Below are positions 8,899 to 52,864 of a stretch of 64,000 nucleotides of DNA, in pieces. A model generated the notes under the pieces. That model had not been told where the DNA came from. It searched no databases and saw nothing but the letters and a program-made list of their open reading frames with translations. Origin of the DNA: Bdellovibrionota bacterium (GTDB lineage: Bacteria > Bdellovibrionota_C > UBA2361 > JBGSMV01); the NCBI GenBank assembly GCA_044356455.1, contig JBIKWF010000002.1:511-64510 (forward strand), in the 5' to 3' direction. The stretch's first letter is position 1. Every line of letters begins with the position of its first letter. Position numbers and translations under genes: made by a program.

Positions 8899-9027
8899 GG
8901 AACCTCTGAAAAACCTCGATATTTTATTTTTTCTCTCTGTGATCTCTGTGTCCTCTGTGGTTTTTCAACAATTTAAATCAACCACAGAGGGCACAGAGTT
9001 CACAGAGTGGATTTTTTCAAAGGCTCC
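8899..9027. mobile_element. MITE-like element family A (CACAGAG hairpin cargo)
   Basis: GGAACCTCTGAAAAA...TTTTTCAAAGGCTCC terminal inverted repeats; CTAA on both sides (8895-8898, 9028-9031); 129 bp. Confidence 0.85.
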
Positions 9028-9549
9028 CTAATAAACCTGCTCGTTATTCACCCCATACTTCTTCTCAGGAGAGGGAGCTTCATATTTTGACGGACACTGC
9101 GTAAGCAGCGAACTCGCTACGACCGTCCCGTTCTCAAGGGAGCCGTCAATAATAACATCCCTTCCCGCAGTAAACATGTCAGGACGAAGCCCTCGATATA
9201 CCACAGGGACAGGTTTGCCAACTTCTGCCGCCGCGGCTACCGAAGCATCAACTACGGGAGAGGCGTTCTCGGTAGTTACCTTAGGATCGGACCCGTCTGC
9301 TGCCTTTTTCGGCGGTGGATCCACAATCGCAAAACGAAGCTCAATATGAGGCTCTGTTTGGTAAAAGATCTCTGCGGCGCCAGATACCCGGCCCACAACC
9401 CGAAGGCGCGGCAACGAGGCGCCGACAGGCTGGGCCGCGATCTCGGTCGGAGAATACACATGCGAAGTGCCTGACTGGGTCGCTTGGACCATTAGCCCAA
9501 TCGCGACAAAGGCCATAATCAGCACAAGAATGACAAACTTTTTCCCCAT
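9028..9549 (-). CDS. ccmE: Heme chaperone CcmE (CxxxY type)
   Basis: N-terminal TM anchor; VYRGLRPDMFTAGRDVIIDG; LLTQCPSKY. Confidence 0.9.
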   Translation of the reverse strand: MGKKFVILVLIMAFVAIGLMVQATQSGTSHVYSPTEIAAQPVGASLPRLRVVGRVSGAAEIFYQTEPHIELRFAIVDPPPKKAADGSDPKVTTENASPVVDASVAAAAEVGKPVPVVYRGLRPDMFTAGRDVIIDGSLENGTVVASSLLTQCPSKYEAPSPEKKYGVNNEQVY

Positions 9550-9603
9550 ACCCAAACTCGCACCTGAAAGAGAAACGCGTAAGCGATCCGTTGTGTTTAA
9601 ATT

Positions 9604-11133
9604 CTATTCCCCAATGGGACGCAGCACCACCATTCCGAGCGCTCGCTTTACGTCGTTCACTTTAGACGTCAAATGGTCGGCAAACCACCTATCCTCCCAC
9701 CATTCCTCTGGTGCTACGGGGACGCCATGCACCCGAACCTCGAAATAAAGCCTGGGGGCCCTCGCGAGTCCGGTGGACCCGGCGCGAGCGATACGTTGAC
9801 CTCGTTTAACCGTCTCGCCCTTCGCCACAAAGGCTTGGTCGAGACTCCCGTAAAGCGTAGTAAGACCAAGGCCATGATCGACGGCCAATGTGCGGCCGTA
9901 TACGCCAAGCCCCTCAGAGAATGAAACAACACCGTCTGCCGCGGCATAGACATCCGATCCGCCCTTAGGGACCGGGATCTCATACCCCGACATAAGAGCG
10001 GAACCAAGCGGAGTTCCCTCGAACTCGAAGTTTGCGCGGTCACCGAAGGCGAGAGATGCGCCCCCCAGTGGCCGAGAAAGTGGCCCATCCCATTGCCTCT
10101 CAAACCTTGGGCCAGCCAGCAGCTTTTGAATAGCCTCCTCATCAAGCTTGCGAAGCTTCTCGTTTACGAGCTTGAACTGTTCGACAAGCCTTTCGGGAGA
10201 GCCGCGCTGAGATGAAAAGAGAAGCGCTTTTCCTGAAGCGCGCGCATCAGCTTCTAGTCGCCCAAGATTTTGCTCGACAATTCCCGCTACTGTTTGGCGC
10301 AGGAACTCTTCCCCTACACGCACAGGCACCGAGCGCGAGGCGCGCTCTCCGATCCGATAATAGAAAGTAGTGGATACCGTGTTGCCGACTGAGTCTTCCG
10401 CATAAAGGTGGAGCGGCGGGGTCTCGTCAGCCTTCATATCTATCGCGAAAAGTGCGGCAAAAAGCGCCGGATCTTCGAATTCGCGGTCGAGTCCACGTGC
10501 AGGAAATCCCATGTACAGTTGGTCTCCTACCCGCACCCCGGAAATGGCGAGGTCTTCATCGATGGCACGGTAGAGCACGAGCTGAGAACCTCCACGACGT
10601 GCATTATGCTGGGTAGTGAGCACCTCTAGACGAGGCTTTCGGAAATCCACTTTAAGGCTCACCGACTGGGTAGCCCCGTTGTTCCAGAAGCTTCTGTCAA
10701 AAGCCTTAACCTCTAACTCAACAGCACCTTCCTCGAGATCGCTCTTATCGCCGGGGAAATCGATTGCTACTCGGGTTGCTTTCTTTCCACCAAGCCCCTG
10801 CCGCAAAATTTCACGCGAGCGGCCTCGCTGCTTTGCCCGCACCACGACCTCGTCTAGCCCTGCGCCATAATCACGCAGATCCATCTTGAGAGTAACAGGG
10901 GCGAGACCAATTCCACGCGGTATCTCTACCGGAATGATTTCAGGAGGATTAGGCTCGAACTTGCTGGTATAGAGCTGAGTCCAGCCGAAGAAGGCAAAAA
11001 GCGAAATAACGGCGACAACGGTCACGATGCTCAACGAAACCCAGAGCCCACGCCGACTGCGTTTCGCCCCCTCGGTTCGACGAACGACCTCAGGCGGAAC
11101 CTCTTGTTCGACGGTCTCATCGATTTTCCTCAC
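9604..11133 (-). CDS. Membrane-anchored M23/LytM-domain protein, zinc ligands degenerate
   Basis: VYAAADGVV, YGRTLAVDHGLGLTTLYGSL, GSTGLARAPRLYFEVRVHG; start uncertain (GTG at 11133 chosen). Confidence 0.85.
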   Translation of the reverse strand: MRKIDETVEQEVPPEVVRRTEGAKRSRRGLWVSLSIVTVVAVISLFAFFGWTQLYTSKFEPNPPEIIPVEIPRGIGLAPVTLKMDLRDYGAGLDEVVVRAKQRGRSREILRQGLGGKKATRVAIDFPGDKSDLEEGAVELEVKAFDRSFWNNGATQSVSLKVDFRKPRLEVLTTQHNARRGGSQLVLYRAIDEDLAISGVRVGDQLYMGFPARGLDREFEDPALFAALFAIDMKADETPPLHLYAEDSVGNTVSTTFYYRIGERASRSVPVRVGEEFLRQTVAGIVEQNLGRLEADARASGKALLFSSQRGSPERLVEQFKLVNEKLRKLDEEAIQKLLAGPRFERQWDGPLSRPLGGASLAFGDRANFEFEGTPLGSALMSGYEIPVPKGGSDVYAAADGVVSFSEGLGVYGRTLAVDHGLGLTTLYGSLDQAFVAKGETVKRGQRIARAGSTGLARAPRLYFEVRVHGVPVAPEEWWEDRWFADHLTSKVNDVKRALGMVVLRPIGE

Positions 11134-11182
11134 ACCAAGCTCCCTCTTATCTTCCCGCCAACAGCCGCTTCGAGCGTCGCTG

Positions 11183-12424
11183 TCACAATTCAAGAGACTC
11201 AAGCGCACTTCCAAGCTGCTCTTCTAAGAACGTCTTCAGCTTCTCGCGCAATCGATTCTCAATCTGCCTCACTCGCTCGCGGCTCACGCCCACTTTTTCA
11301 GAAATTTCCTGCAGCGTTGCTTTCTCTTCCCCAAGCATTCGCTCGTTAAAGATGATTCGCTCCTTATCTTTCAGTGTTGCAGCAAAGTCCTCAAGGCCCT
11401 GTTTTAAGAGCGCCTGAGAACGGCGCTTATCAATGAGATCCTCGGCCGAAGACTCAGGTGAGGGCAACACGCCCAAGAGGGTAGCATCTGACTCAGCCCC
11501 TTGCAGGGGGGCATCCACGCTTACATCGGAAGAGCCAAGGCGCTGCTGCATTTCAACAACTTCGCTCTCCTTTACATTGAGCTTCTCAGCCAAAAGCTTC
11601 GGCGCGGCCACAAACCCTTCTCGCTCCAGGCGGTCTTTCTCCTTCTTCAAGTTAAAAAAGAGCTTTCTTTGGGCTTGGGTAGTACCAATCTTAACCATGC
11701 GCCAGTTCGCAATCAGATAGCGAACCATATAGGCTTTAATCCACCACACGGCGTAGGAGGGAAACCGGACACCGCGATAGGGGTCAAAATTCTTTACGGC
11801 CTCCATCAAACCGATATTCCCTTCCTGCACCAGATCAAGCAGCCCACGTGCGGCTTTTTCGTAGTCACGGGCAATTTTCACGACCAGCCACAAATTACTA
11901 GTAACAAGTCGGTACGCGGCCTCAACATCCTTGTCGCGCAAGTAGCGCACCCCTAATTCATGCTCTTCCTCTCTCGAAAGGGGAGGATAGGCGCGAATCT
12001 CTCGCAGATAGGCGGTCAAGGGATCGAACTGAGTAGGGGCCAGAGACTCCTGGCTGTCTGCGCCCTTAGCTCTTGCCCCTCGCGCCTTAAGCCCCGCTGC
12101 GGGTTCGTGCGTTGGCTCTGCCTCATCAGCGTCGAGGACCAGCTCAGCCCCACCCCCCTCTTCCTCGATGAGGTCGCCGGTATCTATATCGGTGGTCTCT
12201 ATATCTGTGGTCTCAAGAGGGGCAACTTCGATGACCTCCCCAAGGGCGTCTTCTGGAGTAACGGCCTCCTCGAGGCCTGGCTCGTCAGCAACAAGCTCCG
12301 CCTCCACGACTTCAGGCTGGGCGCTCTCAGGGTCTTTGCCCGCTCCCTTTGCGGCGCTCCGCCTTGGCGCATCCCGGCGTCCGCCCTCCGATTTAACCTG
12401 CTGCAATGACTTGTCTTTTTTCAT
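11183..12424 (-). CDS. rpoH: RNA polymerase sigma-32 (RpoH) family factor with acidic N-terminal extension
   Basis: DLVQEGNIGLM, YAVWWIKA, RpoH box QRKLFFNLK, VSRERVRQIE; start set at MKKDK. Confidence 0.9.
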   Translation of the reverse strand: MKKDKSLQQVKSEGGRRDAPRRSAAKGAGKDPESAQPEVVEAELVADEPGLEEAVTPEDALGEVIEVAPLETTDIETTDIDTGDLIEEEGGGAELVLDADEAEPTHEPAAGLKARGARAKGADSQESLAPTQFDPLTAYLREIRAYPPLSREEEHELGVRYLRDKDVEAAYRLVTSNLWLVVKIARDYEKAARGLLDLVQEGNIGLMEAVKNFDPYRGVRFPSYAVWWIKAYMVRYLIANWRMVKIGTTQAQRKLFFNLKKEKDRLEREGFVAAPKLLAEKLNVKESEVVEMQQRLGSSDVSVDAPLQGAESDATLLGVLPSPESSAEDLIDKRRSQALLKQGLEDFAATLKDKERIIFNERMLGEEKATLQEISEKVGVSRERVRQIENRLREKLKTFLEEQLGSALESLEL

Positions 12425-12522
12425 TTGCTCTTCAATGAGGCACTGCCGGCTCTGCGTGTGACAAAACTTCGTTAGTGCCAATCGCACCAATCTTTCAAGT
12501 TCTTACGCTGCTAGGCCGAATA

Positions 12523-12549
12523 TTGGCACTGGGAGCTAATTTTTGCCAC
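12523..12549. promoter_or_regulatory. Possible degenerate CIRCE (HrcA operator) upstream of rpoH
   Basis: TTGGCACTG-N9-TTTTGCCAC versus consensus TTAGCACTC-N9-GAGTGCTAA; spacing exact but right arm poor. Confidence 0.3.
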
Positions 12550-12640
12550 CTCAGCGGGTCCTATCAACCTCGGCCGTTTCAGGCTCCGAGGATAGGCCTA
12601 TCTCGGGCGGCACTACTTAAAAGACGGGACGGGCGCGCGC

Positions 12641-14332
12641 ATGTCATCACGCATCGGAGAACTACTGGTTCGCACCGGACTTATTACGCCCGAGCAGCTG
12701 AACCACGCCAGCGAGGGACAAAAGGCTAATGGCGGGTTTCTGGGCTCCCATATCGTCAAACTTGGCTTCATGTCCGAGGAAGACCTGCTCCAGACCATAA
12801 GCCAGCAATACGGCGTCCCCATTATCGAGCTCAGCAATTGCCAATTCGAGCCCTCGATATTGCAGCTCGTTCCCCAGCCACTTGCGAGCAAGCACAACCT
12901 CGTCCCCGTCGTGCAAAAGGATCGCACGCTCACCATCGCGATGGCGGATCCCACCAATATCGTCGCCCTCAATGATGTGAAATTCATTACCGGGCTCGAC
13001 ATCCAGGTTGTTATTGCGCCTGAGCGCGAGGTCAAGGCCGCGCAAGAACGCGCCTATGAAGTGGGGGTCTCCTACGAAAACATTATTAGTGAGGTTGAGG
13101 AGGACGTTGAAGTCGTTGACACCTCGGACACCGTTGACGTAGCCGAGCTCGAACGCGCGACTGAAGATGCGCCGGTTGTAAAGCTGGTGAATGCCATTCT
13201 CACGGACGCAATTAAGAAAAATGCTTCAGATATTCATATCGAGCCCTACGAAAAGGCGTTTCGAGTGCGCTTTCGTATTGACGGTGTGCTTTATGAAATC
13301 ATGAAGCCGCCGCCTAAACTTAAGAATGCCATAACTTCGCGTATCAAGATCATGTCCGACATGGACATCGCCGAGCGCCGACTTCCCCAAGACGGCCGTA
13401 TCAAATTAAAGCTCGGACAGAGCCGAGAAATGGACTACCGCGTCAACGTTTTGCCTACGCTCTTTGGCGAAAAGGTGGTGCTTCGTCTCCTCGACAAGTC
13501 GAACTTGCAACTCGACATGACAAAACTTGGGTTTGAGGAAGGTCAGCTCAAAGATTTCAAAGAGGCAATCGCTAAGCCTCACGGCATGGTACTGGTGACG
13601 GGGCCCACAGGTTCCGGAAAGACCACGACTTTGTATTCCGCGCTCGCAGAACTCAACAAGAACACTACTAACATTAGCACTGCCGAGGACCCCGTCGAGT
13701 TTAACCTCGCCGGAATTAACCAAGCGCAAATGCACGATGAGATCGGCTTTAACTTCGCGGCTGCCCTGCGCGCCTTTTTGCGACAAGACCCCGATGTCAT
13801 CATGGTGGGTGAAATTCGAGACTACGAGACGGCTGAAATTGGAATTAAAGCCTCCCTTACGGGACACTTAGTACTCTCAACGCTCCACACCAACGACGCC
13901 CCCGCGACCATCAATCGCTTGCTCAACATGGGCGTAGAACCATTCCTCGTCGCTTCTTCGATTAACTTAATCATTGCCCAGAGACTTGCGCGGCGCGTAT
14001 GCAAAGAATGCGCCCAAGATGTTGAAGTTAACCCTGAGATCTTGGTGAACATCGGCATACCCGCCGCCGAGGCCCGTCACCTCAAACTCAAACAAGGCAA
14101 GGGCTGCGGTCGCTGCGCGAACACGGGCTACAAGGGCCGAATTGCGCTTTACGAGGTGATGCCGCTCAAAGAGGAAATTCGAGACTTCATTCTCAACGGC
14201 GCCTCAACTGCTGAAATCAAACGTGAATCCATTCGATTAGGAATGATGACTCTGCGCGCATCGGGACTTTTGCGCCTGAAAGAAGGTGTGACGACCGTTG
14301 AGGAGGTTCTTCGCGTAACCGCAGCTGATTAA
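12641..14332 (+). CDS. pilB: Type IV pilus assembly ATPase PilB
   Basis: MshEN-like N-terminus RIGELLVRTGLITPEQL; ASDIHIEP; GPTGSGKTT; LRQDPDVIMVGEIRD; CxxC...CxxC. Confidence 0.97.
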   Translation: MSSRIGELLVRTGLITPEQLNHASEGQKANGGFLGSHIVKLGFMSEEDLLQTISQQYGVPIIELSNCQFEPSILQLVPQPLASKHNLVPVVQKDRTLTIAMADPTNIVALNDVKFITGLDIQVVIAPEREVKAAQERAYEVGVSYENIISEVEEDVEVVDTSDTVDVAELERATEDAPVVKLVNAILTDAIKKNASDIHIEPYEKAFRVRFRIDGVLYEIMKPPPKLKNAITSRIKIMSDMDIAERRLPQDGRIKLKLGQSREMDYRVNVLPTLFGEKVVLRLLDKSNLQLDMTKLGFEEGQLKDFKEAIAKPHGMVLVTGPTGSGKTTTLYSALAELNKNTTNISTAEDPVEFNLAGINQAQMHDEIGFNFAAALRAFLRQDPDVIMVGEIRDYETAEIGIKASLTGHLVLSTLHTNDAPATINRLLNMGVEPFLVASSINLIIAQRLARRVCKECAQDVEVNPEILVNIGIPAAEARHLKLKQGKGCGRCANTGYKGRIALYEVMPLKEEIRDFILNGASTAEIKRESIRLGMMTLRASGLLRLKEGVTTVEEVLRVTAAD

Positions 14333-14397
14333 TGCAGCGAGAGAGGAAACTCCGGAGAGGATATCTACGATAAGAGAAACTTTAAACGAGGCCACAT

Positions 14398-15618
14398 ATG
14401 CCAGTTTTTGTTTGGGAAGGCACGAACAGCAAAGGGAAGAAGGTCCAAGGCGAACTAGAGGCCAAGGACATTCAATCTGTCTTTAATGTCTTAAAATCCC
14501 AGCGCGTGATTCCTAACGCCAAGACCATTCGCGAGAAAGGCAAAGGTCTTGAGATGGAGATCAAGATCCCAGGCTTTGGGCACTCCGTTAAAGGCCGCGA
14601 CATTGTAATTTTCACCAGACAATTCGCGACGATGATTGACGCGGGACTTCCCCTCGTACAAGCCTTCGATATTCTCGCCAAGCAGCATGAGAATCCTGCG
14701 TTCCGCAAAGTACTTCTTGGAATTAAGGAAGCCGTTGAGACGGGAGGCACACTCTCTGAGGGCATGGCAAAATTCCCCAAAGCCTTCGATGACCTCTACG
14801 TGAACATGGTGAACGCCGGTGAAAACGGCGGTATCCTCGACGTGATTCTCGACAGACTCGCGGTGCACCAAGAAAAAGCCATGAAGCTCAAGCGCGAAAT
14901 CAAGACGGCAATGATCTACCCTGCCGTAGTTATTTCAGCGGCTTTTATTGTTACTTCCGTGCTACTTATCTTCGTAATTCCGACTTTCGCAGAACTTTTC
15001 GCCGACTTCGGCGCGGCTCTGCCCCTACCAACGCAGCTTGTTATTAATCTTTCAAACTTTGTAGTTGGAAATGCGATTTTGATCTTTGGTTCAATATTTG
15101 GGTCACTCTTCGCATTATTCCGCTTCGCAAAAACTCCCCGAGGAAAGGAGGTACTCCACCCCATTTTCCTTAAGCTCCCCATTTTTGGCGACATTATTCG
15201 AAAAGTAGCAGTTGCTCGCTTTACTCGAACTTTGGGCACCATGCTCAGTTCTGGCGTGCCCATCCTTGATGCTCTCAACATCTGCGCCCGCACGGCAGGC
15301 AACAAAGTTGTTGAACGCGACGTGCAGCGCGCTCGTGTTGCCATTTCTGAGGGTAAATCAATGGTAGAACCCCTCTCAGAATCTTCAGTGTTCCCCGCGA
15401 TGGTGATTCAAATGATTGGCGTGGGAGAATCTACGGGTGCACTGGATGCCATGCTTCAAAAGATCGCAGATTTTTATGAAGAAGAAGTGGACAACGCCGT
15501 TGGCGCAATGAAGCAATTAATTGAGCCTCTCATGATTCTCGTCCTAGGTACGATTGTCGGAGCGCTTGTTATTGCCATGTACCTTCCCATTTTCAAAATG
15601 GGCTCGGTCGTCGGCTAA
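14398..15618 (+). CDS. pilC: Type IV pilus platform protein PilC (GspF family)
   Basis: [38 protein letters not shown]. Confidence 0.97.
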
Positions 15619-15637
15619 GAAGAGAGAGAGGAGCTGC

Positions 15638-17698
15638 GTGATTCGATCAGGGGCACAGAGCGCGTCAACAACTTCGGGAGCGAAGCTAACCTGGCTTCTC
15701 AGCGCCCGACTTGGCGTACTTCTTTTGGCCATGGTCTCCGTGCTTGGCTCCCTCGCCCTGATCGAGAGAGAGCACTACTCTGCGGCTCTGGGGCTCTTTT
15801 ATCCGCTTGGCTTCTTTCTCGCTGTCGGAGTGGGAAGCTGGTGGTGGCTCAAGACCCATCGGGCCTCGGAGAGATTTACCGCGACCCAGATTGGGCTCGA
15901 CATCGTGCTGGTCACAGGCATCGTCTACGTCACGGGGGGGCCAATTAGTCCCTTCCTCTTCTTGTATCTCCCCCTAGTAATGGCAGCGTCTCTGCTTCTT
16001 TCTCGAGGAGCAGCTCTCACTGCCGCCGCGGTAAGCTCTGTATCATACACTTTTCTTGCCACCGCGATGAAGACGGGATGGATTGGAACCTACACAGGGA
16101 CTGATGCCGTGCAGGTGCCCTCGGGAGGACTCCTTCTGCAGTCTATTGGCCTTTGTTCGGCAATGGTTCTTATTGCGGTGGCGACAAGTTATCTGGTGCA
16201 AACGATCTCAAAACGAGACGCCACCGTTGAGGAGTCCAAGCGCGACCTCGAACGCGGACTCTCGCGCCAAAAGCAGCTTATTCAGAGCATTCCTGAAGCA
16301 ATCTGCGTCGTTGATAAGAGCGGCAAAGTTTCGAGCGCGAACGCAACGGCCCTGCAACTGCTTGATAAGCCAGAGGACCAACTCGTCGGTAAGTCTCTTA
16401 TTACTGTTTTACAGAGTCTGGATTCTGACTTTTCTTTCGAGCAAAATTCTGATGACTTTTACGGAGAGCTTTCCTTTGAGCGGGAAGGCGCCGCCGAGCC
16501 CACCCGCATTCGTGTACACGGGCGACCGCTTCCTATTTCTTCTCACGAGAACGGCGAAACAGGCCACCTCGTAGTCTTGAACGACATTACCAAGCTGCGC
16601 TCGATTGAAGAGCAGCTTGAGCTTCAGGACCGCATGGCGCGCCTGCTGTCGAACACGAACGAGCCGCCGCCGTCGCTGCCACGCCGCTTGGGCGATTTCA
16701 TTGGCGAAAGCGTGGTGATGCAGAAGGTGTTTGGGCTAATTCAACGCGTCGCCCGCTCTGATGCGACCGTACTTGTGAACGGCGAATCCGGTACCGGTAA
16801 GGAACTCGTAGCCCGGGCCATTCATCAAGAGAGCCTCCGCGCCCGTGGGCCATTTGTCGCCGTCAACTGCGGAGCAATCCCCGAAACCTTGCTCGAAAGT
16901 GAATTCTTCGGCCACAAGAAAGGATCCTTTACGGGCGCCCAGGCGGATCATCCAGGACTTTTCCAGCGCGCGTCAGGAGGCACGCTCTTTCTTGATGAAA
17001 TTGGAGAGCTGCCAGTACTCATGCAGGCAAAGCTTCTCCGTGCGATTCAAGAACGATCCATTCGGCCGGTAGGAGGAGAGCGCGACCTTCCCATGGACGT
17101 ACGAATTGTGGCTGCCACGAATAGAAACTTACGCCGCGAAATTGAGTCAGGAAATTTCAGAGAAGACCTTTACTACCGCCTTAATGTTATCAGCATTAGC
17201 CTGCCGCCTCTTAAGGAACGCAAAGAGGACATACCCCTTCTTGTAAATGCAATCCTGCAGAGACTTCTCAAGCAATCGAGCAATGGGGAGGAAACGCCCA
17301 CTGCGGTAATTCCACCTCAAACCATGCAATTTTTGGTGAGCTACTCGTACCCAGGCAACGTTCGAGAACTCGAGAATATAATCGAACGAGCCTTCGTGCT
17401 TGGCGGCTCGGTGATTCTTCCTGAACATCTCCCTGAGGCAGTAAGAAACTCCCCTTCCGAACTTGAGCCAGTCGGTGAAAAGAGAGCACGCGGAGACACC
17501 CAAATAATCATAGATGAATCGATACAATTTCCCGTTGACCTTGATACGGTACTGGGAGTGATTGAAAGAAGATACCTCGAGGGAGCACTCTCTCAAACGG
17601 GCGGAGCAAAGAAAAAAGCTGCTGAGCTACTTGGCATCAACTTTCGTTCCTTTCGCTATCGCCTCCAGAAGTTTGGGCTTTCGGATGCTGAGGGCTGA
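15638..17698 (+). CDS. PilS(TM+PAS)-PilR(sigma54 AAA+ and HTH) fusion regulator
   Basis: PilS-like TM region ([27 protein letters not shown]), PAS, then [41 protein letters not shown] and a Fis-type HTH; no HisKA, HATPase or REC; GTG start after GAGGAG. Confidence 0.9.
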
Positions 17699-18065
17699 GG
17701 CCTTCTCAGTTCGCGCAATTTCATCAAGCATAGGCAATTCTCGTAGCATCGGCATCTTGCAGCGTTTGAGCGGCGCCGCGAGGATGCACCGCCCTACCTC
17801 GGGCCCGGCAGGGAGCCGCGTCCTCGCGCTTGTTTTTAAGCCCCTTGGGTGCCGTCTCCCGGCAGCCTTCCGCTTCGCTGGAGGCGCTGAGTTGCGCCAT
17901 TTTTCAAGACAGTTCTTGCACTTAGTGAATTCTCGCATTGCGGGCATCTTGCGGCATGTGAGCGGCGCCCTACCGGACCCGTGCCAGGGCGCCACATCTT
18001 CGCGGTGCCGAACAATCCCCGACAGGGCCACCACTTCCCAAAACTGAGCCGTTTTTCGTCCCAAA

Positions 18066-18127
18066 TGACAAAATTTGCGCCCTGTGCCGCACATTGTCAC
18101 CGCAAAACTGCATCTAACCCCTTGAAT
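18066..18127. promoter_or_regulatory. Candidate enhancer (TGACAA...TTGTCA) and IHF-like site upstream of the pilA promoter
   Basis: Inverted TGACAA (18066-18071) and TTGTCA (18094-18099); TAACCCCTTGAAT (18115-18127) is one mismatch from WATCAANNNNTTR on the minus strand. Confidence 0.4.
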
Positions 18128-18163
18128 TACATCTTTCCGAAAAAACTCTAAACCTTTTTTGGC

Positions 18164-18179
18164 TGGCATCCGACTTGCT
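18164..18179 (+). promoter_or_regulatory. Sigma54 (-24/-12) promoter of pilA
   Basis: TGGCATCCGACTTGCT fits TGGCAC-N5-TTGC with exact GG-N10-GC spacing. Confidence 0.85.
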
Positions 18180-18368
18180 CAGTACAGACAGACGGGAACG
18201 CTGCGGTAGCCTGCGCTCGGTTTAGAGCAGATGGCCCCCAACGCGTTTCGCCGGGAACACCGGGAAACTGGGGCCGGACGGGTAAGCGAAGCAACCTATT
18301 GAGAGGCTGCCAAGTCGTACCAAAAGGTTTTCGGTTCTTAACGTAATAGTAGGTAGGAGAAATTAATC

Positions 18369-18785
18369 ATGAAGAGAATGACGAAAGACGCTGGTTTTAC
18401 CCTCATTGAGTTGCTCGTAGTTGTTGCCATCATCGGCATCTTGGCTGCGATTGCTATTCCTCAGTTCGCTGAATATCGTGCTCGTGGATTTGACTCTCGT
18501 GCGCTTAGCGATCTCCGAAATGCAGCTACCGCCGAAGAGGCTTATTTCGCTGATAACGAAGTGTACAGGACCTGTGCGAACGCTACTGACTGTGCGACCG
18601 ACCTTCCTGGCTTCACCGCCTCCCTTGGCGTAGTAGTTGCCATGGCAGCTGTTGCTCCTAGCGGAACCACTCCTGCTAGCTTCACTGGTCAGTCTTCACA
18701 TCCTCAGGGCTCTGTGAATGGTACTGATGCCTGCTACAACTGGGACAACTCAGCTGGTGGTCTTGAAGCATCACGCGCTTGCTAA
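18369..18785 (+). CDS. pilA: Type IVa major pilin
   Basis: G|[22 protein letters not shown] prepilin motif; AGGAG RBS; four Cys; own promoter and terminator. Confidence 0.95.
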
Positions 18786-18812
18786 TCTGATAGGCTAGCA
18801 AGATAGAACACG

Positions 18813-18842
18813 AAAGAGCGGGCTTCGGCCCGCTCTTTTTTT
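18813..18842 (+). terminator. Intrinsic terminator after pilA
   Basis: AAAGAGCGGGC-TTCG-GCCCGCTC followed by a T-run. Confidence 0.9.
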
Positions 18843-18884
18843 GCTTAAAAATGAAACGGCATTGGCGGGTTGGTGTAGTAAAAC

Positions 18885-18911
18885 AACCACTAAGAACACA
18901 GAGACCACTAA
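18885..18911. repeat. ACCACTAAG-type repeat arm abutting element A
   Basis: AACCACTAAGAACACAGAGACCACTAA is identical to part of the right arm of the 55637 hairpin. Confidence 0.8.
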
Positions 18912-19033
18912 GGAGCCTCTGAAAAAGTCCTCCTTCGTGCTCTTCGCGACCTTCGCGTTAAACCCAAACTTTGCGGCTGCGCGATATATTGAGAGATAAC
19001 ACGAAGGGGAAAAAGAAGCTTTTCAGAGGCTCC
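18912..19033. mobile_element. MITE-like element family A (CTTCG(T/C)G hairpin cargo)
   Basis: GGAGCCTCTGAAAA...TTTTCAGAGGCTCC; internal CTTCGTGCTCTTCGCGACCTTCGCGTTA...TAACACGAAG; related to the 41096 copy in reverse. Confidence 0.8.
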
Positions 19034-19130
19034 CAAAGGGGAAGACTGAATTGTCTCACTGCCACGAATTTGCAAATGCGGATAGCCCCTCCCGCCCTCT
19101 CCTGCTAAAACATCCCCAAGCGATTTTATC

Positions 19131-20069
19131 ATGCTCCGAGCGTTTACCATACTTGGGCTTTCGGCCGGCTTTCTCTTCCTTTGCTTACTCTCGGCATCAC
19201 GCCTCGAGAGCGCCCATGCGCGTCATTCTCAAGACGAGCAGCAGCTCGCAGAGTCTCTGTACTTGCCGCAAGCGGGCGCCGTTGCCGCTGCCAGCTTTGG
19301 CTACAAAAACGCACTTGCTCACCTACTCTGGTTTAAAACGATTAGTTATTTCGGGAAGGAATATCGGGGCTCTAAAAACTACCGCTGGCTTAGCCACATG
19401 TGCGAACTGGTAGTCGGCCTTTCTCCGCGTTCGGAGCATGTCTATCGCTTCTGCGGAACCATGCTGGCGTGGGAAGGAAATCAACCTGAGCTAAGCATTA
19501 GAATTCTGGACAAAGCAGTGAACCAGTTTCCCGAGAACTGGTACTTTCTCTATCTTCGGGGCTTTACCTTCATTTACTTTTTGCAGAATGAAGAAAGAGG
19601 GAACGCGGATATTATCGCTGCTGCCCAAAAGCCTGGAGCGCATCCTATTGTAATGAGACTTGCGGCGAAGAAACTTTCCGCGAGTCACAGCCCGGAAGCG
19701 GCAATTTCCTTCCTCCAAGGCGCGATAAGAATGACGGAGGACAGAGCAGCGCGGTCTGCCCTGCAAAGCAGGCTTACTGAAGCCTATTACGAACTGGGAT
19801 TTGAACTGATAGAAAGAGCGATCCAAAAGTTCCGCGCCTCTGAGGGCATACTCCCTCGCTCCCTAGAGGAGCTTGAGGGGAAGGGGCTAATTCCCCAAGA
19901 ATTGTCCCGAGAACACTATAAAGATCCCTTTGGTGGCAGGTATCAGCTCGACCCCTTAACTGGCACGGTGACAAGTTCAAGCGGAAAACCCCGAAATAGC
20001 GTGTCGTGGAATAAGCCTCACGCACCGGCGGGGAAGGCTCCCTCGTCCCCTGCTCCAGCGGAGAACTAA
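19131..20069 (+). CDS. Pilin-associated protein (Myxococcus PilG / Geobacter Xap-like position)
   Basis: N-terminal TM; helical TPR-like middle; C-terminal LPRSLEEL...DPFGGRY; lies between the pilin and an ABC transporter. Confidence 0.6.
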   Translation: MLRAFTILGLSAGFLFLCLLSASRLESAHARHSQDEQQLAESLYLPQAGAVAAASFGYKNALAHLLWFKTISYFGKEYRGSKNYRWLSHMCELVVGLSPRSEHVYRFCGTMLAWEGNQPELSIRILDKAVNQFPENWYFLYLRGFTFIYFLQNEERGNADIIAAAQKPGAHPIVMRLAAKKLSASHSPEAAISFLQGAIRMTEDRAARSALQSRLTEAYYELGFELIERAIQKFRASEGILPRSLEELEGKGLIPQELSREHYKDPFGGRYQLDPLTGTVTSSSGKPRNSVSWNKPHAPAGKAPSSPAPAEN

Positions 20070-20195
20070 GGTATCTCTGTAAAGTCCGCTCAGTGAACTC
20101 TGTGCCCTCTGTGGTTTTTACACAATTTAAATCAACCACAGAGGGCACAGAGTTCACTGAGAAAAAACAATATGGCGATGTTTCTCAGAGGTTCC
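20070..20195. mobile_element. MITE-like element family A, loop-inverted subtype
   Basis: GGTATCTCTGTAAA...TTTCTCAGAGGTTCC; begins directly after the CTAA that contains the upstream stop codon. Confidence 0.8.
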
Positions 20196-20324
20196 ATAAG
20201 AGCCCCCTGGATTGATCCACAAAATGACTTCTTCTCTCATCTTTAATCGTAATATCATTCGCCCCATGAAGCACCCACTCTCTGTGCCACAGTGGATTTC
20301 TATTCAGTGGAGTTCTATTGACAC

Positions 20325-21326
20325 ATGACCGAGTCCTTAGCTCTTGAAATTAGCTCGCTCTCCTACACCTACACCGAGGAGTGGACCCGTAAGACGCGTC
20401 AGGCCCTAAAGGAGGTGACTCTGGAGGTGAGGGAGGGAGAAGCGTTTGGCTTTCTTGGACACAACGGCGCAGGTAAAACGACTGCAATCAAGGCTATTTT
20501 AAACCTGATTGCGCCGCAGAAAGGCAGCATTAAGATCTTTGGCGAGTCCTCAAAGTCGCCGCGCGCCAGAAGGCAGATAGGCTACTTACCTGAGCAGCCC
20601 TATTTCTATGACTATCTGAGCGTACAGGAAACCGTAGAGCTCTACGCCTGCCTTGCTGAGGTGCCGCGCGACGTGCGCTCCCGCACCGTAGCTCAAACTC
20701 TTGAGAGAGTGGGTCTCGCCGAACGTGGGAAAGTGCGAATGCGCACGCTCTCCAAAGGCCTGACCCAGCGCGTCGCACTGGCCCAAGCCATAGTAGCAAA
20801 ACCAAAGCTTCTCATTCTTGATGAGCCTTTCTCTGGCCTTGACCCACTGGGGAGAAGGGAGTTTCGAACTATTCTCTCCGAACTCAAGTCGGGGGGCGCC
20901 ACCATTTTTATGTCGTCCCACATTCTAAGCGACGTAGAGTTCTTATGTGACCGCGCCTCAATTATGGTAAACGGCGCGCTTCGAGGGGTATTCGATCTCC
21001 ATGAGCGCCCCGCTGCTCTTTCAGGAACCGAGTTCGAACTCACCATCCAATCTTCTAAGGACGCCTCATCCATCGCGGGAGACGCGAACAGCCGCTATGA
21101 ACGCTCTGGCACGCTTCAGCGTTTCCGCTTTTCTGACCGCACTGGCGCAGAGCGCGCCTTGCACGCGGCTTTAACGCAAGGACTTGCCATCGAGTCTTAT
21201 GAAAGAAGGCAAATTTCGCTCGAAGAACTCTTCATGCAAATAGTCTCAGATTCAGGGGGTACCGCGGCAACTCAATCGAAACTAGAATCACCTACCGGAA
21301 CAGCTCATAGCGCTCCACGCTCATAA
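20325..21326 (+). CDS. ABC transporter ATP-binding protein (PilH-like)
   Basis: GHNGAGKTT, LSKG, LILDEPFSGLDP, SSHILSD. Confidence 0.9.
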   Translation: MTESLALEISSLSYTYTEEWTRKTRQALKEVTLEVREGEAFGFLGHNGAGKTTAIKAILNLIAPQKGSIKIFGESSKSPRARRQIGYLPEQPYFYDYLSVQETVELYACLAEVPRDVRSRTVAQTLERVGLAERGKVRMRTLSKGLTQRVALAQAIVAKPKLLILDEPFSGLDPLGRREFRTILSELKSGGATIFMSSHILSDVEFLCDRASIMVNGALRGVFDLHERPAALSGTEFELTIQSSKDASSIAGDANSRYERSGTLQRFRFSDRTGAERALHAALTQGLAIESYERRQISLEELFMQIVSDSGGTAATQSKLESPTGTAHSAPRS

Positions 21327-21342
21327 CTCCCTTGCCGACGCC

Positions 21343-23181: not shown

Positions 23182-23273
23182 GAAGCCTGGAAGGACGCCG
23201 TGTCCTCACGGCGCTCCTTACCATCGAATTTTGAGGCAATGCTCGTTGTCAACTTTCACGCACGCTTTGTTGG

Positions 23274-23401
23274 GGAATCTCTGAAAAACCTCGATATTTT
23301 ATTTTTCTCTCTGTGAGCTCTGTGTCCTCTGTGGTTTGTCAATAATTTAAATCAACCACAGAGGGCGCAGAGTTCACAGAGTGGGCTTTTTCAGAAGCTC
23401 C
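23274..23401. mobile_element. MITE-like element family A
   Basis: GGAATCTCTGAAAAA...TTTTTCAGAAGCTCC; colinear with the 8899 copy; target duplication degenerate. Confidence 0.8.
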
Positions 23402-23516
23402 CGAGGAAGAGCAGCGCCCTGCCCCCCCCCCTCCCTCAGTTGAACCATCAGCCCCTGTTCCCAAATCTTTCCGCATGGGAAACTGACTCCCCAGTGCAAG
23501 ATTCACAGGATCTACT

Positions 23517-24680: not shown

Positions 24681-24704
24681 TCTCTTGGAGGATAGGTAAC
24701 CTAG

Positions 24705-24831
24705 GGAACCTCTGAATAAGTCCTCTCTGTGAACTCTGTGCCCTCTGTGGTTTTTCAACAATTTAAATCAACCACAGAGGGCACGGAGTTCACAGAGAGA
24801 AAATAAAATAGCGATATTTTTCAGAGATTCC
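24705..24831. mobile_element. MITE-like element family A, loop-inverted subtype
   Basis: GGAACCTCTGAATAA...TTTTTCAGAGATTCC with CTAG on both sides (24701-24704, 24832-24835). Confidence 0.88.
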
Positions 24832-27282: not shown

Positions 27283-27368
27283 CCTCCTCCCTTCGTGTTC
27301 TCTGTGGTCTTAGTGGTTGTCTCCATAAAGAACCACTAAGACCACAGAGAACACAAAAAGGGGGGAGG
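27283..27368. repeat. Free 9-bp-periodic palindrome (REP/REPIN-like hairpin)
   Basis: CTTCGTGTT CTCTGTGGT CTTAGTGGTT ... AACCACTAAG ACCACAGAG AACACAAAA; no terminal-repeat shell. Confidence 0.85.
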
Positions 27369-37225: not shown

Positions 37226-37354
37226 GGGACCTGTGGAAAGCCCGGATATTTTATGTTTTCTCTCCCTGTCCTCTGTGCCCTCTGTGGTTTTTCAACAATT
37301 TAAATCAACCACAGAGGGCACAGAGTTCACAGAGCAGGCTCTTTCAGAGCTTTC
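37226..37354. mobile_element. MITE-like element family A
   Basis: CTAG|GGGACCTGTGGAAAG...CTTTCAGAGCTTTC|TTAG; 129 bp; same hairpin and loop as the 8899 copy. Confidence 0.8.
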
Positions 37355-39491: not shown

Positions 39492-39623
39492 GGATGCTCC
39501 GAAGAAGTCCTCTCTGTGAACTCTGTGCCCTCTGTGGTTGGTTTAAATTGCTCAAAAACCACAGAGGACACAGAGTTCACAGAGAGAGAAAAAAATAAAA
39601 TATCGAGGCTTTTCAGAGGTTCC
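39492..39623. mobile_element. MITE-like element family A (reverse of the 8899 type)
   Basis: GGATGCTCCGAAGAA...CTTTTCAGAGGTTCC, immediately after the TAG stop of the upstream gene. Confidence 0.85.
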
Positions 39624-39650
39624 TTGGCGGTCTCCGTGTTCTTAGTGGTT
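39624..39650. repeat. ACCACTAAG-type arm abutting element A
   Basis: TTGGCGGTCTCCGTGTTCTTAGTGGTT is the reverse complement of AACCACTAAGAACACGGAGACCGCCAA. Confidence 0.7.
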
Positions 39651-41095: not shown

Positions 41096-41234
41096 GGAAC
41101 CTCTAAGAGCTTCGTTTCCCCCTTCGCGTCCTCGGCGTCCTTCGCGTTATTTTCCAATATACCGCACACCCGCAATGGTTGGGTTTAACGCGAAGGACAC
41201 GAAGAGCACGAAGGAGGACCTTTTCTGAGGCTCC
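41096..41234. mobile_element. MITE-like element family A (CGCGAAG/CACGAAG hairpin cargo)
   Basis: CTAG|GGAACCTCTAAGAG...TTTTCTGAGGCTCC|CTAG; arms CTTCGCGTCCTCGGCGTCCTTCGCGTTA and TAACGCGAAGGACACGAAGAGCACGAAG. Confidence 0.85.
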
Positions 41235-42321: not shown

Positions 42322-44061
42322 ATGGAAGATCGACGTACCGCCATCGCAATTCTTCTCATCATCATGACGGTCATGATGTACTCAGAGCTCGTGCTCGCGC
42401 CGACCATGAGACCGCCCTCCACTGCCGCGACCGCACGAACATCTTCCCAGCTCGCGGCGTCAACCCAAACTTCTCCATCTGGAAATACTGGCGCTCAATT
42501 AAAGTCAGCTGCCGCAGTTCTCCCCGGCGCGAGTGGCGTCGTCTCTCCTGAGCAAGCTCCCTCCCCCGCCGAGTTAAAAGAGGCCCCCTCTCTCACGGTA
42601 GAGACCCCCTTCTTTATTGCGAAATTGTCGTCCCTTGGCGGAAGACTTCTGAGCTTCAAGCTCAAGGCACACCGCGACCAACTAAAGGAGGACGGCCTGC
42701 TCGATCTCGTTAGCAGCCCAGAAAACACACCGCTTCCCTTGGGAATTTACTCAGGAACTCGATCGGACCTTAGAACGAACTACACCATTTCGAGCATTCA
42801 CCCCCCACAGCCTGAAGGCGCGAACACCTTTTCGGTAACTCCAGGACAAACGCTTTCCATTTCATTCAAAGGAGCGCTTGCAGACGGGTCCTCAATCTCA
42901 AAAAATTTCTCTTTCCAGGGAGATTCCTACCTCTTCAATGTGGTGGCATCGCTCGATCAGCCGGCACCAGACGGCACAAGTCTCTGGCTCGAGTGGGCGA
43001 GATTCTTACCAGAAGCTATCTTGAGTGACTCGATTGACCCGTGGACCTTCACCTCGCTAAGCGACGCAAGCAAAGTACAACACATCCAGCTCCCCTCTCT
43101 CACCCTCGACGGCCTGAGCCAGCCCTTCGCGGCTCAGTGGCTAGGACTCGCGGATAAGTATTTCACCGCGACTCTCCTTACCGATCAGGGAGGATTTAAT
43201 GCACGCTACGGAAGGTCAGGACCGTTGTTTCTACACCGCATGGCTGGCACTCCTACCGAAGGACGATTCTCTCTCTTTGTCGGACCAAAGGACTACCGCG
43301 TACTTCAGCAACTAGGTAACCAACTCGAGCGCAGTATCGATCTCGGATTTTTCTCTTTCCTCGCGTACCCCCTACTTATCCTTATCCGATTATTCCATTC
43401 CGTGTTTAACAACTACGGTCTCGCGATTGTTGGGGTGACCCTTCTTATCAAGGGCCTCTTCTTCCCGCTCACCAAAGCAAGCCTCAAGTCCATGAAGGCC
43501 ATGCAGAGCTTACAGCCTGAGATGCAAGCACTGAGGGAGCGAGTGAAAGATCCCACTCAGCTCAACCAAGAAATGCTTCAGCTCTATAAGCGCCGAGGGG
43601 TAAACCCAATGGGAGGCTGCCTCCCCATCCTGCTCCAGATCCCGGTTTTCTTCGGACTCTACAGCGCACTGCTTCACTCCATTGAGCTCCGTCACGCCGC
43701 GTTTGGGCTCTGGATTCAAGACCTCTCTGTTCCTGAGCGTCTCGAGTTTTTTGGCGTCAACTTTCCCATCATGATTTTAGTCATGGGCGGCGCTATGTTC
43801 TATCAGCAATGGGTCACCCCCATGCCGACAATAGATCCTGCCCAAAGACGCATGATGCTGATAATATCCGCCGTGTTCCCTGTCAGCTTCTTGATATTCC
43901 CGTTCCCTTCGGGACTCGCGCTCTACATGCTGACTAACACCCTGGTATCATTGATACAGCAGGCTTATCTTCGAAACGACTCACATCAGAGCCCAGGGCG
44001 CGCAACTACCCTGGCCAGCCTTGGCATTTTCGCCATCGCATATGTGCTATCATTGCTGTAA
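42322..44061 (+). CDS. yidC: Membrane protein insertase YidC
   Basis: FVGPK, NYGLAI, GVNPMGGCLPILLQIPVF, WIQDLS. Confidence 0.97.
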   Translation: MEDRRTAIAILLIIMTVMMYSELVLAPTMRPPSTAATARTSSQLAASTQTSPSGNTGAQLKSAAAVLPGASGVVSPEQAPSPAELKEAPSLTVETPFFIAKLSSLGGRLLSFKLKAHRDQLKEDGLLDLVSSPENTPLPLGIYSGTRSDLRTNYTISSIHPPQPEGANTFSVTPGQTLSISFKGALADGSSISKNFSFQGDSYLFNVVASLDQPAPDGTSLWLEWARFLPEAILSDSIDPWTFTSLSDASKVQHIQLPSLTLDGLSQPFAAQWLGLADKYFTATLLTDQGGFNARYGRSGPLFLHRMAGTPTEGRFSLFVGPKDYRVLQQLGNQLERSIDLGFFSFLAYPLLILIRLFHSVFNNYGLAIVGVTLLIKGLFFPLTKASLKSMKAMQSLQPEMQALRERVKDPTQLNQEMLQLYKRRGVNPMGGCLPILLQIPVFFGLYSALLHSIELRHAAFGLWIQDLSVPERLEFFGVNFPIMILVMGGAMFYQQWVTPMPTIDPAQRRMMLIISAVFPVSFLIFPFPSGLALYMLTNTLVSLIQQAYLRNDSHQSPGRATTLASLGIFAIAYVLSLL

Positions 44062-46774: not shown

Positions 46775-46856
46775 GGAGCCTCTGAAATAGTCCTCCTTGC
46801 TGCTCTCCGAGTCCCCTTCTCCCAAATAACGAGGGGGGAGATTTTCTTGGGTTCGC
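46775..46856. mobile_element. Partial/degenerate family A element
   Basis: CTAG|GGAGCCTCTGAAATAGTCCTCCTTGC... resembles the start of the 18912 copy; right end degraded. Confidence 0.6.
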
Positions 46857-51750: not shown

Positions 51751-51918
51751 GTTCTTAACGTAAAACAGCCCACTTCCGAACCCGCGCTAAGCAGCGCCAA
51801 GATGGATAACTAGTAGTTCGGCAGAGAGGAGATCGGTTGTTCTTAAAGTAGGGAAGCGTTAACTCTAGGGGTCTCGCATTTTTGCACATGGCCTTGCCGC
51901 CAAAGAGCACTGTCACTT

Positions 51919-52677
51919 ATGAGTACTGAGCAGCCTGATACAAATGTTACCGCCCCCCTATCCGCAGGTGTCGCAACCCCCTCCGATGTAACTTCTGCTA
52001 GTACACCCTCCGTGGGCTCAACTCCGATTCAATCAGCCACCACGAGCGCTTCACTTAATGGCTCTGCCCCTGGAGAGGAAGCCTCTCCCGTCAACCCAAG
52101 CGCAGCTCAAGAAGTTATCTCCTTCTTTAAAACACTCGCTATCTTTTTAGTGATTGCTTTCTTATTACGGGCATCAGTTGTCGAGGCTTTCAAAATTCCC
52201 TCCGGCTCGATGATTCCCACTCTTAGAATTGGGGACCATATCCTCGTCAGCAAGCTTTCCTATGGGATTAGGCTCCCTTTTGTTACTCACTTCGTTTACC
52301 AATTCGCAGAGCCCCAGCGAGGGGATATTGTAGTTTTCACACGGCCGGATGAGCCTGACACCAACATCATTAAGCGCGTCATAGGAGTCCCGGGGGACCT
52401 TATCGAGGTACGTCAAACCAAGCTCTTCGTGAATAACCAGCTTCAATACGAACCCTACGCGCGCTATGAGCTAAATGGGATAAAGAACTTTGGACCCGAA
52501 CGCGTTCCAGTTGGCCACATATTCATGATGGGGGACAACCGCGATCATTCCCGCGACAGTCGTTTCTGGGAAGAAACACCCTGGCTAGAGATTCAGCGCG
52601 TCAAAGGCCGAGCTTTGATTATCTATTGGTCTTGGGATCCTTCGTGGCGAGATAGGCTTGGGAAGTTAGTGAGATGA
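51919..52677 (+). CDS. lepB: Signal peptidase I
   Basis: IPSGSMIPTL, RGDIVVF, IKRVIG, MMGDNRDHSRDSR. Confidence 0.95.
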   Translation: MSTEQPDTNVTAPLSAGVATPSDVTSASTPSVGSTPIQSATTSASLNGSAPGEEASPVNPSAAQEVISFFKTLAIFLVIAFLLRASVVEAFKIPSGSMIPTLRIGDHILVSKLSYGIRLPFVTHFVYQFAEPQRGDIVVFTRPDEPDTNIIKRVIGVPGDLIEVRQTKLFVNNQLQYEPYARYELNGIKNFGPERVPVGHIFMMGDNRDHSRDSRFWEETPWLEIQRVKGRALIIYWSWDPSWRDRLGKLVR

Positions 52678-52686
52678 GGCCTCGCC

Positions 52687-52732
52687 CTTAGTGGTTTTTA
52701 ATACCAACCACTAAGACCACAGAGACCACTAA
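52687..52732. repeat. ACCACTAAG-type hairpin interrupted by element A
   Basis: CTTAGTGGTT...AACCACTAAGACCACAGAGACCACTAA, then the element A terminal repeat. Confidence 0.8.
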
Positions 52733-52864
52733 GGAACCTCTGAAAAACTCCCCCTCCGCGTACTCCGCGTTATGCAATACTTTTAAAGTAACGCGGAGGA
52801 CGCTGAGTACGCGGAGGAAAAACAGGACAGTGGAAGGTCGATTTTTAGTTTTTTCAGAGGTTCC
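52733..52864. mobile_element. MITE-like element family A (CGCGGAG hairpin cargo)
   Basis: CTAA|GGAACCTCTGAAAAA...TTTTTCAGAGGTTCC|CTAA, perfect 15-bp TIR; arms CTCCGCGTACTCCGCGTTA and TAACGCGGAGGACGCTGAGTACGCGGAG. Confidence 0.9.

Follow-up and report, generated by a model that had tools for sequence, protein, structure and literature searches.

The cores of MITEs are usually regarded as meaningless filler. Elhai and colleagues are said to have described in 2008 small dispersed repeats of cyanobacteria that are nested in MITEs, and such very small palindromic repeats inside other small mobile elements resemble the case described here, although they come from another phylum and have other sequences, and the repeat nested here is 65-75 bp long and has a unit grammar. 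Type II MITEs, according to the accessible part of the source, resemble an IS in their terminal repeats only (PMC10969869). REPs are characterised, in the available portion of the text, as imperfect palindromes of 20-40 bp, one end of which bears a conserved tetranucleotide tag, GTAG or CGTC (PMC3733652), and the REP/REPIN elements and BIME mosaics known from enterobacteria and Pseudomonas appear in the available excerpts as intergenic palindromic doublets with covarying arms and no target duplication, the BIME mosaics also as clusters of alternating orientation with conserved linkers (PMC3116915, PMC3184786). A further dispersed hairpin repeat, SRM/NTS, is described together with the Ssn nucleases, which are of the GIY-YIG type, in the excerpt at hand (PMC11893778). 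A literature search brought up neither IS5 MITEs that have REP-like cores nor, in Bdellovibrionota, the repeats treated below.

The elements in question were found in a Bdellovibrionota MAG (216 contigs, 93% complete), and their shell is a non-autonomous IS5-group transposon, i.e. a type II MITE. For the window, which is the whole analysed stretch of 64,000 nucleotides, about 11 intergenic elements had been noted, and nine elements of 122-139 bp and two remnants are indeed present. The end motif GGRRCCTCTGAAAA occurs there 17 times with at most two mismatches, a number that none of 100 shuffled sequences reaches (mean 2.37, maximum 6). Six of the nine have CACAGAG-type hairpin cores and form family A, at 8899..9027 (129 bp), 20070..20195 (left end degenerate with 3 mismatches, loop turned in the less common direction relative to the linkers), 23274..23401 (128 bp), 24705..24831 (127 bp, folding as single-stranded DNA at -41.5 kcal/mol, z -12.0), 37226..37354 (both ends degenerate, with 2 and 3 mismatches) and 39492..39623 (left end degenerate, right end exact). 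The two with CRCGAAG-type cores belong to family C, one of them at 18912..19033 (122 bp), inserted beside the right arm (18888-18912) of a CACTAAG-type hairpin, and the other at 41096..41234 (139 bp), and the only one with a CGCGGAG-type core is the family-B element at 52733..52864 (132 bp). Of the remnants, that at 46775..46855 has kept a left end with one mismatch while its interior and right end are eroded, and that at 6621..6700 consists of a degenerate family-A end, one arm and the loop. Exact 4-bp duplications flank four copies, with CTAA at 8899 and 52733 and CTAG at 24705 and 41096. The elements are located at gene ends, and no Rfam family matches the window at gathering score.

The likeness of the shell to IS5, which had been proposed from its ends and target sites, is borne out by comparison with complete ISs. 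The terminal inverted repeats of 15-19 bp, beginning with GGAACCTCTGAAAAA, and the 4-bp YTAR duplication are those of IS5-group ISs encoding NF033581 / DUF772+DDE_Tnp_1. Complete ISs of 1150-1232 bp with the exact 15-mer at their ends were found in Hahella, Vreelandella, Cellvibrio, an Olavius symbiont and a cyanobacterium (six copies that represent five distinct elements, two of the copies being from Hahella), and three of these ISs carry TTAG, TTAA or CTAG duplications. One ORF from each of the five distinct elements was compared, and all five match NF033581 (E 8e-94 to 8e-104) and the Pfam pair DUF772+DDE_Tnp_1. An element that PGAP names ISPsy2-family starts with GGAAACTCTGAAAAA after a CTAA, and its end is one mismatch away from the 15-mer. 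The elements are also small, non-coding and multi-copy, as MITEs are.

As had been noted, no transposase is encoded within the window, and an intact transposase with these ends was not found in the assembly either. The genome does contain a remnant, in which a decayed transposase C-terminus is followed by the right end (contig C113, 42716-43185). The single match to PF01609, a 440-aa ORF on contig C213, is unrelated and lacks these ends, and profile searches of the genome with PF13586 and PF13546 gave no matches. Wider end pairs, 44 of them spaced 340-2652 bp, enclose ordinary genes and have no long repeat in common, and thus are not autonomous ISs, and the IS5_4-type ISs of the order (7 loci) have different ends and no arms of the kind described below.

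Genome-wide, 486 forward and 505 reverse ends were counted, which form 287 pairs spaced 100-240 bp, 262 of them at 110-149 bp. Identical 4-bp flanks are found in 139 of the 287 pairs, namely CTAG in 60, CTAA in 37, TTAG in 36, TTAA in 4 and others in 2, so that 137 of the 139 are YTAR, and the flank composition follows Y-T-A-R on both sides. No two copies are identical, and median identity between copies is 0.72-0.83. Exact duplications occur in four families (79/150 in family A, 33/59 in E, 19/38 in B and 4/8 in C), which suggests that the composites have moved as whole units. A target site is also visible within the genome itself, as a CACTAAG-type hairpin carries the element at 52733 in the CTAA of its outermost unit, this CTAA being duplicated, and intact copies of this repeated hairpin elsewhere constitute a paralogous empty site. 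An exact empty site in a relative was not found: the closest genome that was compared, the same-genus genome G001, is only about 67% identical in genes, and therefore only synteny can be read from it and not exact sites; its syntenic region is devoid of the MITEs. Contigs of four lake-metagenome runs that cover 8000-27999 end at every MITE, and the joints listed there are cross-matches between copies. These elements fragment assemblies of the lineage.

It had been envisaged that a single shell carries interchangeable cargoes. The ends are indeed common to all elements, but only the terminal 15-19 bp are, both among the families and between them and the ISs, as in type II MITEs, and there are at least five families with linkers and loops of their own. 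The core is a hairpin in every family, each arm of which is made of three 9-bp units (CTYNGYG plus 2 bases). The families also have one plan in common: a short linker is followed by three units, then by an A+T-rich loop that starts with GG-TT and ends with AA-CC, by three further units, and by a longer linker that starts with CCTC. The orientation of the loop is nearly fixed (136:1 in family A, 46:6 in E and 28:2 in B), and this rules out a frequent flipping of loops inside the shell. IS5-group MITEs as such are a known kind, and what is added here is the independent hairpin family. The cores show no visible derivation from the IS, and so differ from IS deletion products; they are a hairpin repeat of the host lineage, which is identifiable and independently dispersed, and the literature search gave no parallel to this for IS5 MITEs. 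The presence of at least five families in one genome, with an autonomous partner found as a remnant only, is a further difference from known IS5-group MITEs.

The hairpin is a separate, class-wide repeat family. That it exists apart from the shell had been noticed in the window, and the same is true of the rest of the genome and of many relatives. Within the window, shell-less triple-unit hairpins of the same grammar lie at 27283..27366 (CACTAAG/CACAGAG units, without IS5 ends and without target duplication), at 55636..55712 (a perfect stem of 33 bp, z -14.6) and at 56776..56872, where the arm pair is "inside-out", with the CRCNRAG arm first and the CTYNGYG arm second. The shell-less hairpins of the window fold well beyond shuffled sequences (z -4.9 to -14.6), and all three are absent at the syntenic places of G001. 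In the whole genome, 333 hairpins of this grammar were detected versus one in the reversed genome, and 57 of the 333 have no end within 80 bp. Searches of 91 genomes from the order, with reversed-pattern controls near zero, gave the unit pattern in 31, in most cases without such ends, and it is present also in 5-6 of 23 genomes from other orders of the class. Six relatives (G067, G009, G004, G083, G013 and G012) have 17-100 unit patterns per strand, and the end motif is absent from five of them and has one stray match on each strand in G009. In the relative G019, MITEs of 180 bp have the same ends and an unrelated core (6/6 fetched), and its CACAGAG hairpins are shell-less (3/3 viewed); these are about 80% identical to the family-A hairpin including its loop (E 2e-12). 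Elsewhere the arms occur in still other contexts, bounding an 85-bp core in G012 and lying within a different, larger repeat in G004.

These observations argue that the elements are IS5-group MITEs whose cores stem from an independent, class-wide hairpin repeat, and that the hairpin is probably a passenger of IS5-type transposition. An IS5-group DDE transposase supplied in trans would bind the ends and would cut and paste the whole unit, and hitch-hiking in this way may have raised the copy number of the hairpin in this genome about ten-fold. The hairpin may have entered by nesting at the centre of a MITE palindrome, or there may have been one old capture followed by divergence. The heptamer types differ only by transitions and are mixed within arms (CTCTGTG and CTCTGCG in family E, CTTAGTG and CTCTGTG in shell-less hairpins), and hence both a repeated capture and one old capture with divergence are possible. 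Composites of IS5 ends and triple-unit hairpins are found also in G001 (5/6 loci) and G031, and as all families here have kept the hairpin, ends and hairpin may be together because of an old or a functional link and not by accident.

Repeated capture would not be needed if a single ancestral composite MITE, with IS5 ends and one hairpin, had diversified, while slippage and hairpin repair kept the arms uniform in each lineage. The one plan of all families, the transitions between the mixing heptamers, the age of the association suggested by G001 and G031, and the varying number of units, which reaches 8 at C105:12620 and can be ascribed to slippage, all speak for such a history. However, families A, B, C and E have loops and linkers that cannot be aligned with each other, the family-A hairpin resembles shell-less hairpins of G019 together with its loop, G019 combines the same ends with an unrelated core, and the hairpins are frequent in genomes that lack these ends, so that diversification from a single composite deserves consideration but is on balance doubtful.

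A more far-reaching reading, which goes beyond the passenger role and is unlikely, sees in the triple-9-mer palindromes an undescribed, class-wide mobile or recombinogenic module of Bdellovibrionota that has its own machinery, different from both RAYT and Ssn. Such a module would prefer the centres of palindromic elements, namely of the IS5 MITEs in this genome, G001 and G031, of another shell found in G004 and of a second mosaic element of the present genome, and it would itself be the target of a third, GC-rich insert. As to Ssn, the likeness consists in a dispersed hairpin repeat and in a small stand-alone GIY-YIG gene of the present genome (a 95-aa ORF, C146:10577-10789), but no triple units are found in its 3.2-kb locus, the hairpin that lies near this gene occurs only twice, and the Ssn/SRM system, as far as it is described in the available excerpt, differs in this; the gene was rejected as a partner.

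It is quite improbable that the triple-unit arms are instead working parts of the MITE, which would raise transposition by offering additional binding sites to a host factor or to the IS5-type transposase. By reading, the end core CCTCTG resembles and recurs in the family-A unit CCTCTGTG, and thus the arms may have a role in transposition; moreover, arms of one grammar have been kept in all five families, and in the shells found in G001 and G031, although the loops are unrelated. Against this, G019 (46+38 ends) has thriving IS5 MITEs that share the ends but have no arms, in other phyla the units are missing from 31 of 32 end pairs of MITE size, the IS5_4-type loci of the order show no arms, and arms are abundant where such ends are absent.

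The weakest reading is that of the original prediction, in which REP/REPIN-like hairpins are spread by a RAYT (HUH Y1) enzyme and are also carried in DDE-mobilised shells. Shell-less copies do resemble the REP/REPIN and BIME elements, so far as the available excerpts describe these: direct repeats are not enriched at any offset among 53 copies, and thus no target duplication is seen, they are intergenic inverted doublets, their arms covary (complementarity at variable positions exceeds the shuffled-partner expectation), clusters of alternating orientation with conserved linkers exist in G012, G113 and the solo arrays of the present genome, and hairpin positions differ between same-genus genomes. 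A RAYT origin is nevertheless very improbable, since each arm of 25-27 bp is made of three iterated 9-bp units and not of one tagged palindrome of 20-40 bp, a terminal GTAG or CGTC tag was not seen on inspection of the 53 listed copies, no RAYT gene flanked by the 9-mers was found among 15 Y1_Tnp loci (no units within 2.5 kb of the three Y1_Tnp-like genes of this genome, and none at the 12 loci of relatives), and Y1_Tnp is present in 84 of 91 genomes of the order with or without hairpins but the hairpins in only 31 of 91, i.e. the two do not track each other.

In these MITEs the supposed filler can be identified as a repeat family, which has a grammar of its own and is distributed in its own way over a bacterial class. 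The present genome has about 650 arms versus at most 200 in any relative searched, which agrees with a roughly ten-fold gain of a passenger in an IS5 vehicle; one selfish repeat thus appears to owe its multiplication to transport inside another. Were the hairpins in addition a module with its own machinery, this would amount to three-tier nested selfish DNA, the innermost parasite of which multiplies via the transposase of the outer element. The elements offer a system for studying the spread of small palindromic repeats that have no known enzyme and the way in which type II MITEs acquire their cores, and for asking whether hairpins help transposition or merely accompany it.

The nine elements of 122-139 bp that the original prediction had placed in the window were confirmed by reading the sequence (8899-9027, 18912-19033, 20070-20195, 23274-23401, 24705-24831, 37226-37354, 39492-39623, 41096-41234 and 52733-52864), as were their interior types, with arms of three 9-bp units of the CACAGAG (six), CRCGAAG (two) or CGCGGAG (one) kind, and the four exact duplications of the CTAA/CTAG class at 8899, 24705, 41096 and 52733 (CTAA in the last). 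Remnants lie near 6621 and 46775. The end motif GGRRCCTCTGAAAA has 17 matches with up to two mismatches in the window, where shuffles average 2.37 and none of 100 reaches 17. Also the hairpins of the same unit grammar that lack such ends were found at about 27283, 55637 and 56780, and they fold much more strongly than shuffles (z -4.9 to -14.6); Rfam families gave no match in the window. The MITEs at 37226 and 39492-39623 each have a solo triple-unit arm immediately beyond them (37153-37177 and 39623-39647), perhaps half of a hairpin that an insertion disrupted or landed beside.

For a 694-aa protein of the window, the closest relatives are from Bdellovibrionota MAGs (32-57% identity). At up to two mismatches, the draft genome (4.70 Mb, 216 contigs) has 486 ends in forward and 505 in reverse orientation, forming 341 pairs within 3 kb, of which 262 span 110-149 bp. 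The proposed genome-wide extraction of end pairs and sorting of their interiors left 287 pairs of 100-240 bp once duplicate right ends were dropped, in several loop families. The flanks read Y-T-A-R at both sides, and in 139 of the 287 pairs they are identical over 4 bp (CTAG 60, CTAA 37, TTAG 36, TTAA 4, other 2), with in-register identity over 3 bp in three cases only and over 5 bp in one. The copies are not young: median pairwise identities are 0.83 for family A, 0.72 for E, 0.72 for B and 0.76 for C, with a maximum of 0.98.

The shell is of IS5 type, as had been predicted, since it combines the ends of IS5-group ISs with YTAR duplication. When the exact 15-mer was sought in one genome per species, at least 120 stretches matched, and among those listed the same ends bound at least six complete IS copies of 1150-1232 bp: two in Hahella and one each in Vreelandella (TTAG duplication), an Olavius symbiont (TTAA), Cellvibrio (CTAG) and an uncultured cyanobacterium (at a contig start). 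All five ORFs tested match the IS5 family transposase NF033581 of NCBIfam (E 8e-94 to 8e-104) and carry Pfam DUF772 and DDE_Tnp_1. Of the named elements in plasmid records that align from base one, the nearest are annotated as "IS5-like element ISPsy2 family", and one such copy starts GGAAACTCTGAAAAA immediately after CTAA. MITE-size pairs with these ends and unrelated interiors occur, among the matches listed, in Nitrosomonas europaea, Pseudomonas, Cellvibrionaceae and others. The autonomous IS that the prediction called for exists complete in other bacteria, but an intact partner transposase was not found in the own genome (216 contigs, 93% complete, with breaks at repeats), where NF033581 hit only a decayed C-terminal fragment (C113:42716-43011) with a right end next at 43172-43185. 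A search with PF01609 gave one unrelated 440-aa ORF, and PF13586 and PF13546 gave zero matches there. As far as the portion of PMC10969869 consulted defines them, the elements are IS5-group type II MITEs. They would be mobilised by an IS5-group DDE transposase supplied in trans, and the hairpin would be a passenger amplified by hitch-hiking.

The same-genus relative G001 is syntenic with window 17000-25800 at about 67% gene identity and is free of these MITEs; two genes that overlap there lie 255 bp apart here, and the gap holds the element at 20070. A CACTAAG-type hairpin hosts the element at 52733 in the CTAA of its outermost unit; CTAA is duplicated there, and other, uninterrupted copies of that hairpin provide a paralogous empty site. 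Shells abut hairpin arms in 9 of 287 cases versus 45 of 5000 random positions, and this excess fits the presence of a YTAR within the CACTAAG unit. Public contigs from four lake-metagenome runs stop at every MITE and bridge none.

By loop signature, the 287 shells fall into family A (CACAGAG-type core; 150 shells, 79 with exact 4-bp duplications), E (59, 33), B (CGCGGAG-type; 38, 19), C (CRCGAAG-type; 8, 4) and D1 (3, 0), one nested A+E shell without duplication, and 28 others (4 duplications), many of which appear by eye to be divergent E or C copies. The prediction of one shell with interchangeable cargo goes too far: the terminal 15-19 bp alone are common to all families, the ten bases past position 14 are specific to family and side, and loops cannot be aligned between families. 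The heptamers (C-R-C-N-R-A-G) are not discrete types; they differ by transitions and are mixed within arms. The number of arm units varies by slippage, up to eight. In two family-A MITEs (C105:12620-12791 and C113:9764-9917) one arm has grown to about 6-8 tandem 10-bp units, and these expansions demonstrate within-arm slippage. Some shells, 44-70 bp long, are empty or minimal.

Further repeats occur in the own genome. A third nesting tier is formed by a GC-rich insert, about 70-85 bp long, with 32 copies (e.g. C10:10757-10967, C36:2292-2506, C87:48532-48742, C32:1766-1975), 27 of which directly follow the loop-proximal unit of a family-B or -C hairpin, always in the same orientation relative to that unit; it is found in 14 of the 38 family-B shells and is absent from the window, with one diverged copy on the window's contig C154 about 12.7 kb beyond the window end. 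Three CTCCGYG units form a solo array of 24 bp that occurs about 38 times, often at the end of a contig and never in the window (e.g. C127:45702-45853, C130:153-302, C138:29611-30030). It links repeated modules in varying combinations, with four kinds to one side and two or three to the other, is also seen in inverted pairs spaced 119 or about 390 bp, and with its modules looks like a second mosaic element on the same unit grammar. Another MITE-like family, recognised by reading only, has the ends GGAGTGTGTCCCGTAGAAA and CTAG/CTAA-like sites; it was met in flanks (e.g. C12:3337, C116:23466, C127:45854) and within the mosaic element.

The hairpin family is demonstrably independent of the shell. 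A scan for inverted pairs with at least two units per arm found 333 hairpins in the own genome and one in the reversed genome; within 80 bp, 191 have both ends, 85 one and 57 none. Shell-less copies mostly belong to a CACTAAG-type family of about 65 bp with a boundary about 27 bp from the loop, and their arms are complementary above shuffled-partner expectation at variable positions (0.72 vs 0.44 at position 9, for example); flanking direct repeats were not enriched in 53 copies. The three shell-less hairpins of the window are missing at the syntenic places of G001. Of the 91 order genomes, 31 have the three-unit arm pattern, and reversed-pattern controls give zero or nearly zero matches; elsewhere in the class the pattern is present in 5-6 of 23 genomes from other orders. 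Arm counts per strand are 335+314 in the own genome (G000), 97+100 in G067, 42+40 in G009, 36+32 in G004, 31+36 in G083, 27+20 in G013 and 17+17 in G012. Among the order genomes, many copies of the end motif are present only in G000 (137+114) and G019 (46+38), with few in G001 and G031. MITE-size end pairs from other phyla lack the units in 31 of 32 cases, the exception being a G019-type element that matches weakly with two units. The arms of G012 enclose a core of 85 bp, in some cases in tandem, those of G004 lie centrally in another repeat that is 231 bp or longer, and "inside-out" arm pairs occur in G004, G045, G015, G018 and G013.

The hairpins possibly entered by repeated nesting or capture. 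Shell-less counterparts exist, hairpins sit in different shells in other genomes, and chimeric shells occur (C98:1390, A/E; C112:2913, E/B; C32:1766, B and C arms). In G019 the same ends enclose MITEs of 180 bp that have YTAR duplications and a unit-free core (6 of 6 fetched), and its CACAGAG hairpins, about 80% identical to the family-A core, are shell-less (3 of 3 viewed). Another possibility is a single old capture with later divergence within the unit grammar, to which the architecture common to the families, the interconvertibility of heptamers by transitions and the composites of G001 (5 of 6 loci) and G031 point. The shell-hairpin association is recurrent or old, because these two genomes also carry shells around triple-unit hairpins.

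The core resembles REP/BIME elements in behaviour, as the parts of PMC3116915 and PMC3184786 consulted describe them, but it fails the REP-RAYT tests. The predicted mobilisation by RAYT found no support: the three weak Y1_Tnp genes of the own genome have no units within 2.5 kb, none of 12 Y1_Tnp loci of relatives has any, and Y1_Tnp is found in 84 of 91 order genomes, with or without hairpins. G017, a genome of the same order that lacks triple-unit hairpins, has at least six near-identical copies (on contigs C1, C2, C3 and C5) of a 332-350-aa gene that matches Y1_Tnp in part and may be an unrelated mobile gene. An Ssn-type GIY-YIG mover, considered by comparison with the part of PMC11893778 consulted, was not supported, as the locus of the one 95-aa GIY-YIG gene (C146:10577-10789) holds no units and the hairpin neighbouring the gene occurs only twice. 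In C146:10577-11200, two to three incomplete tandem repeats of the 5' end of this stand-alone gene precede it, and two of them bear a GC-rich hairpin.

On the whole, the predicted observation stands and its interpretation does so in part. Literature searches, confined to main articles, turned up no description of IS5 MITEs that have cores of this kind, nor of the present repeats in Bdellovibrionota. Among cyanobacterial small dispersed repeats, very small repeats are nested in MITEs, comparable to the present nesting. The IS5 MITE part is ordinary; what merits follow-up is the class-wide family of triple-unit hairpins and its recurrent link to MITE shells.
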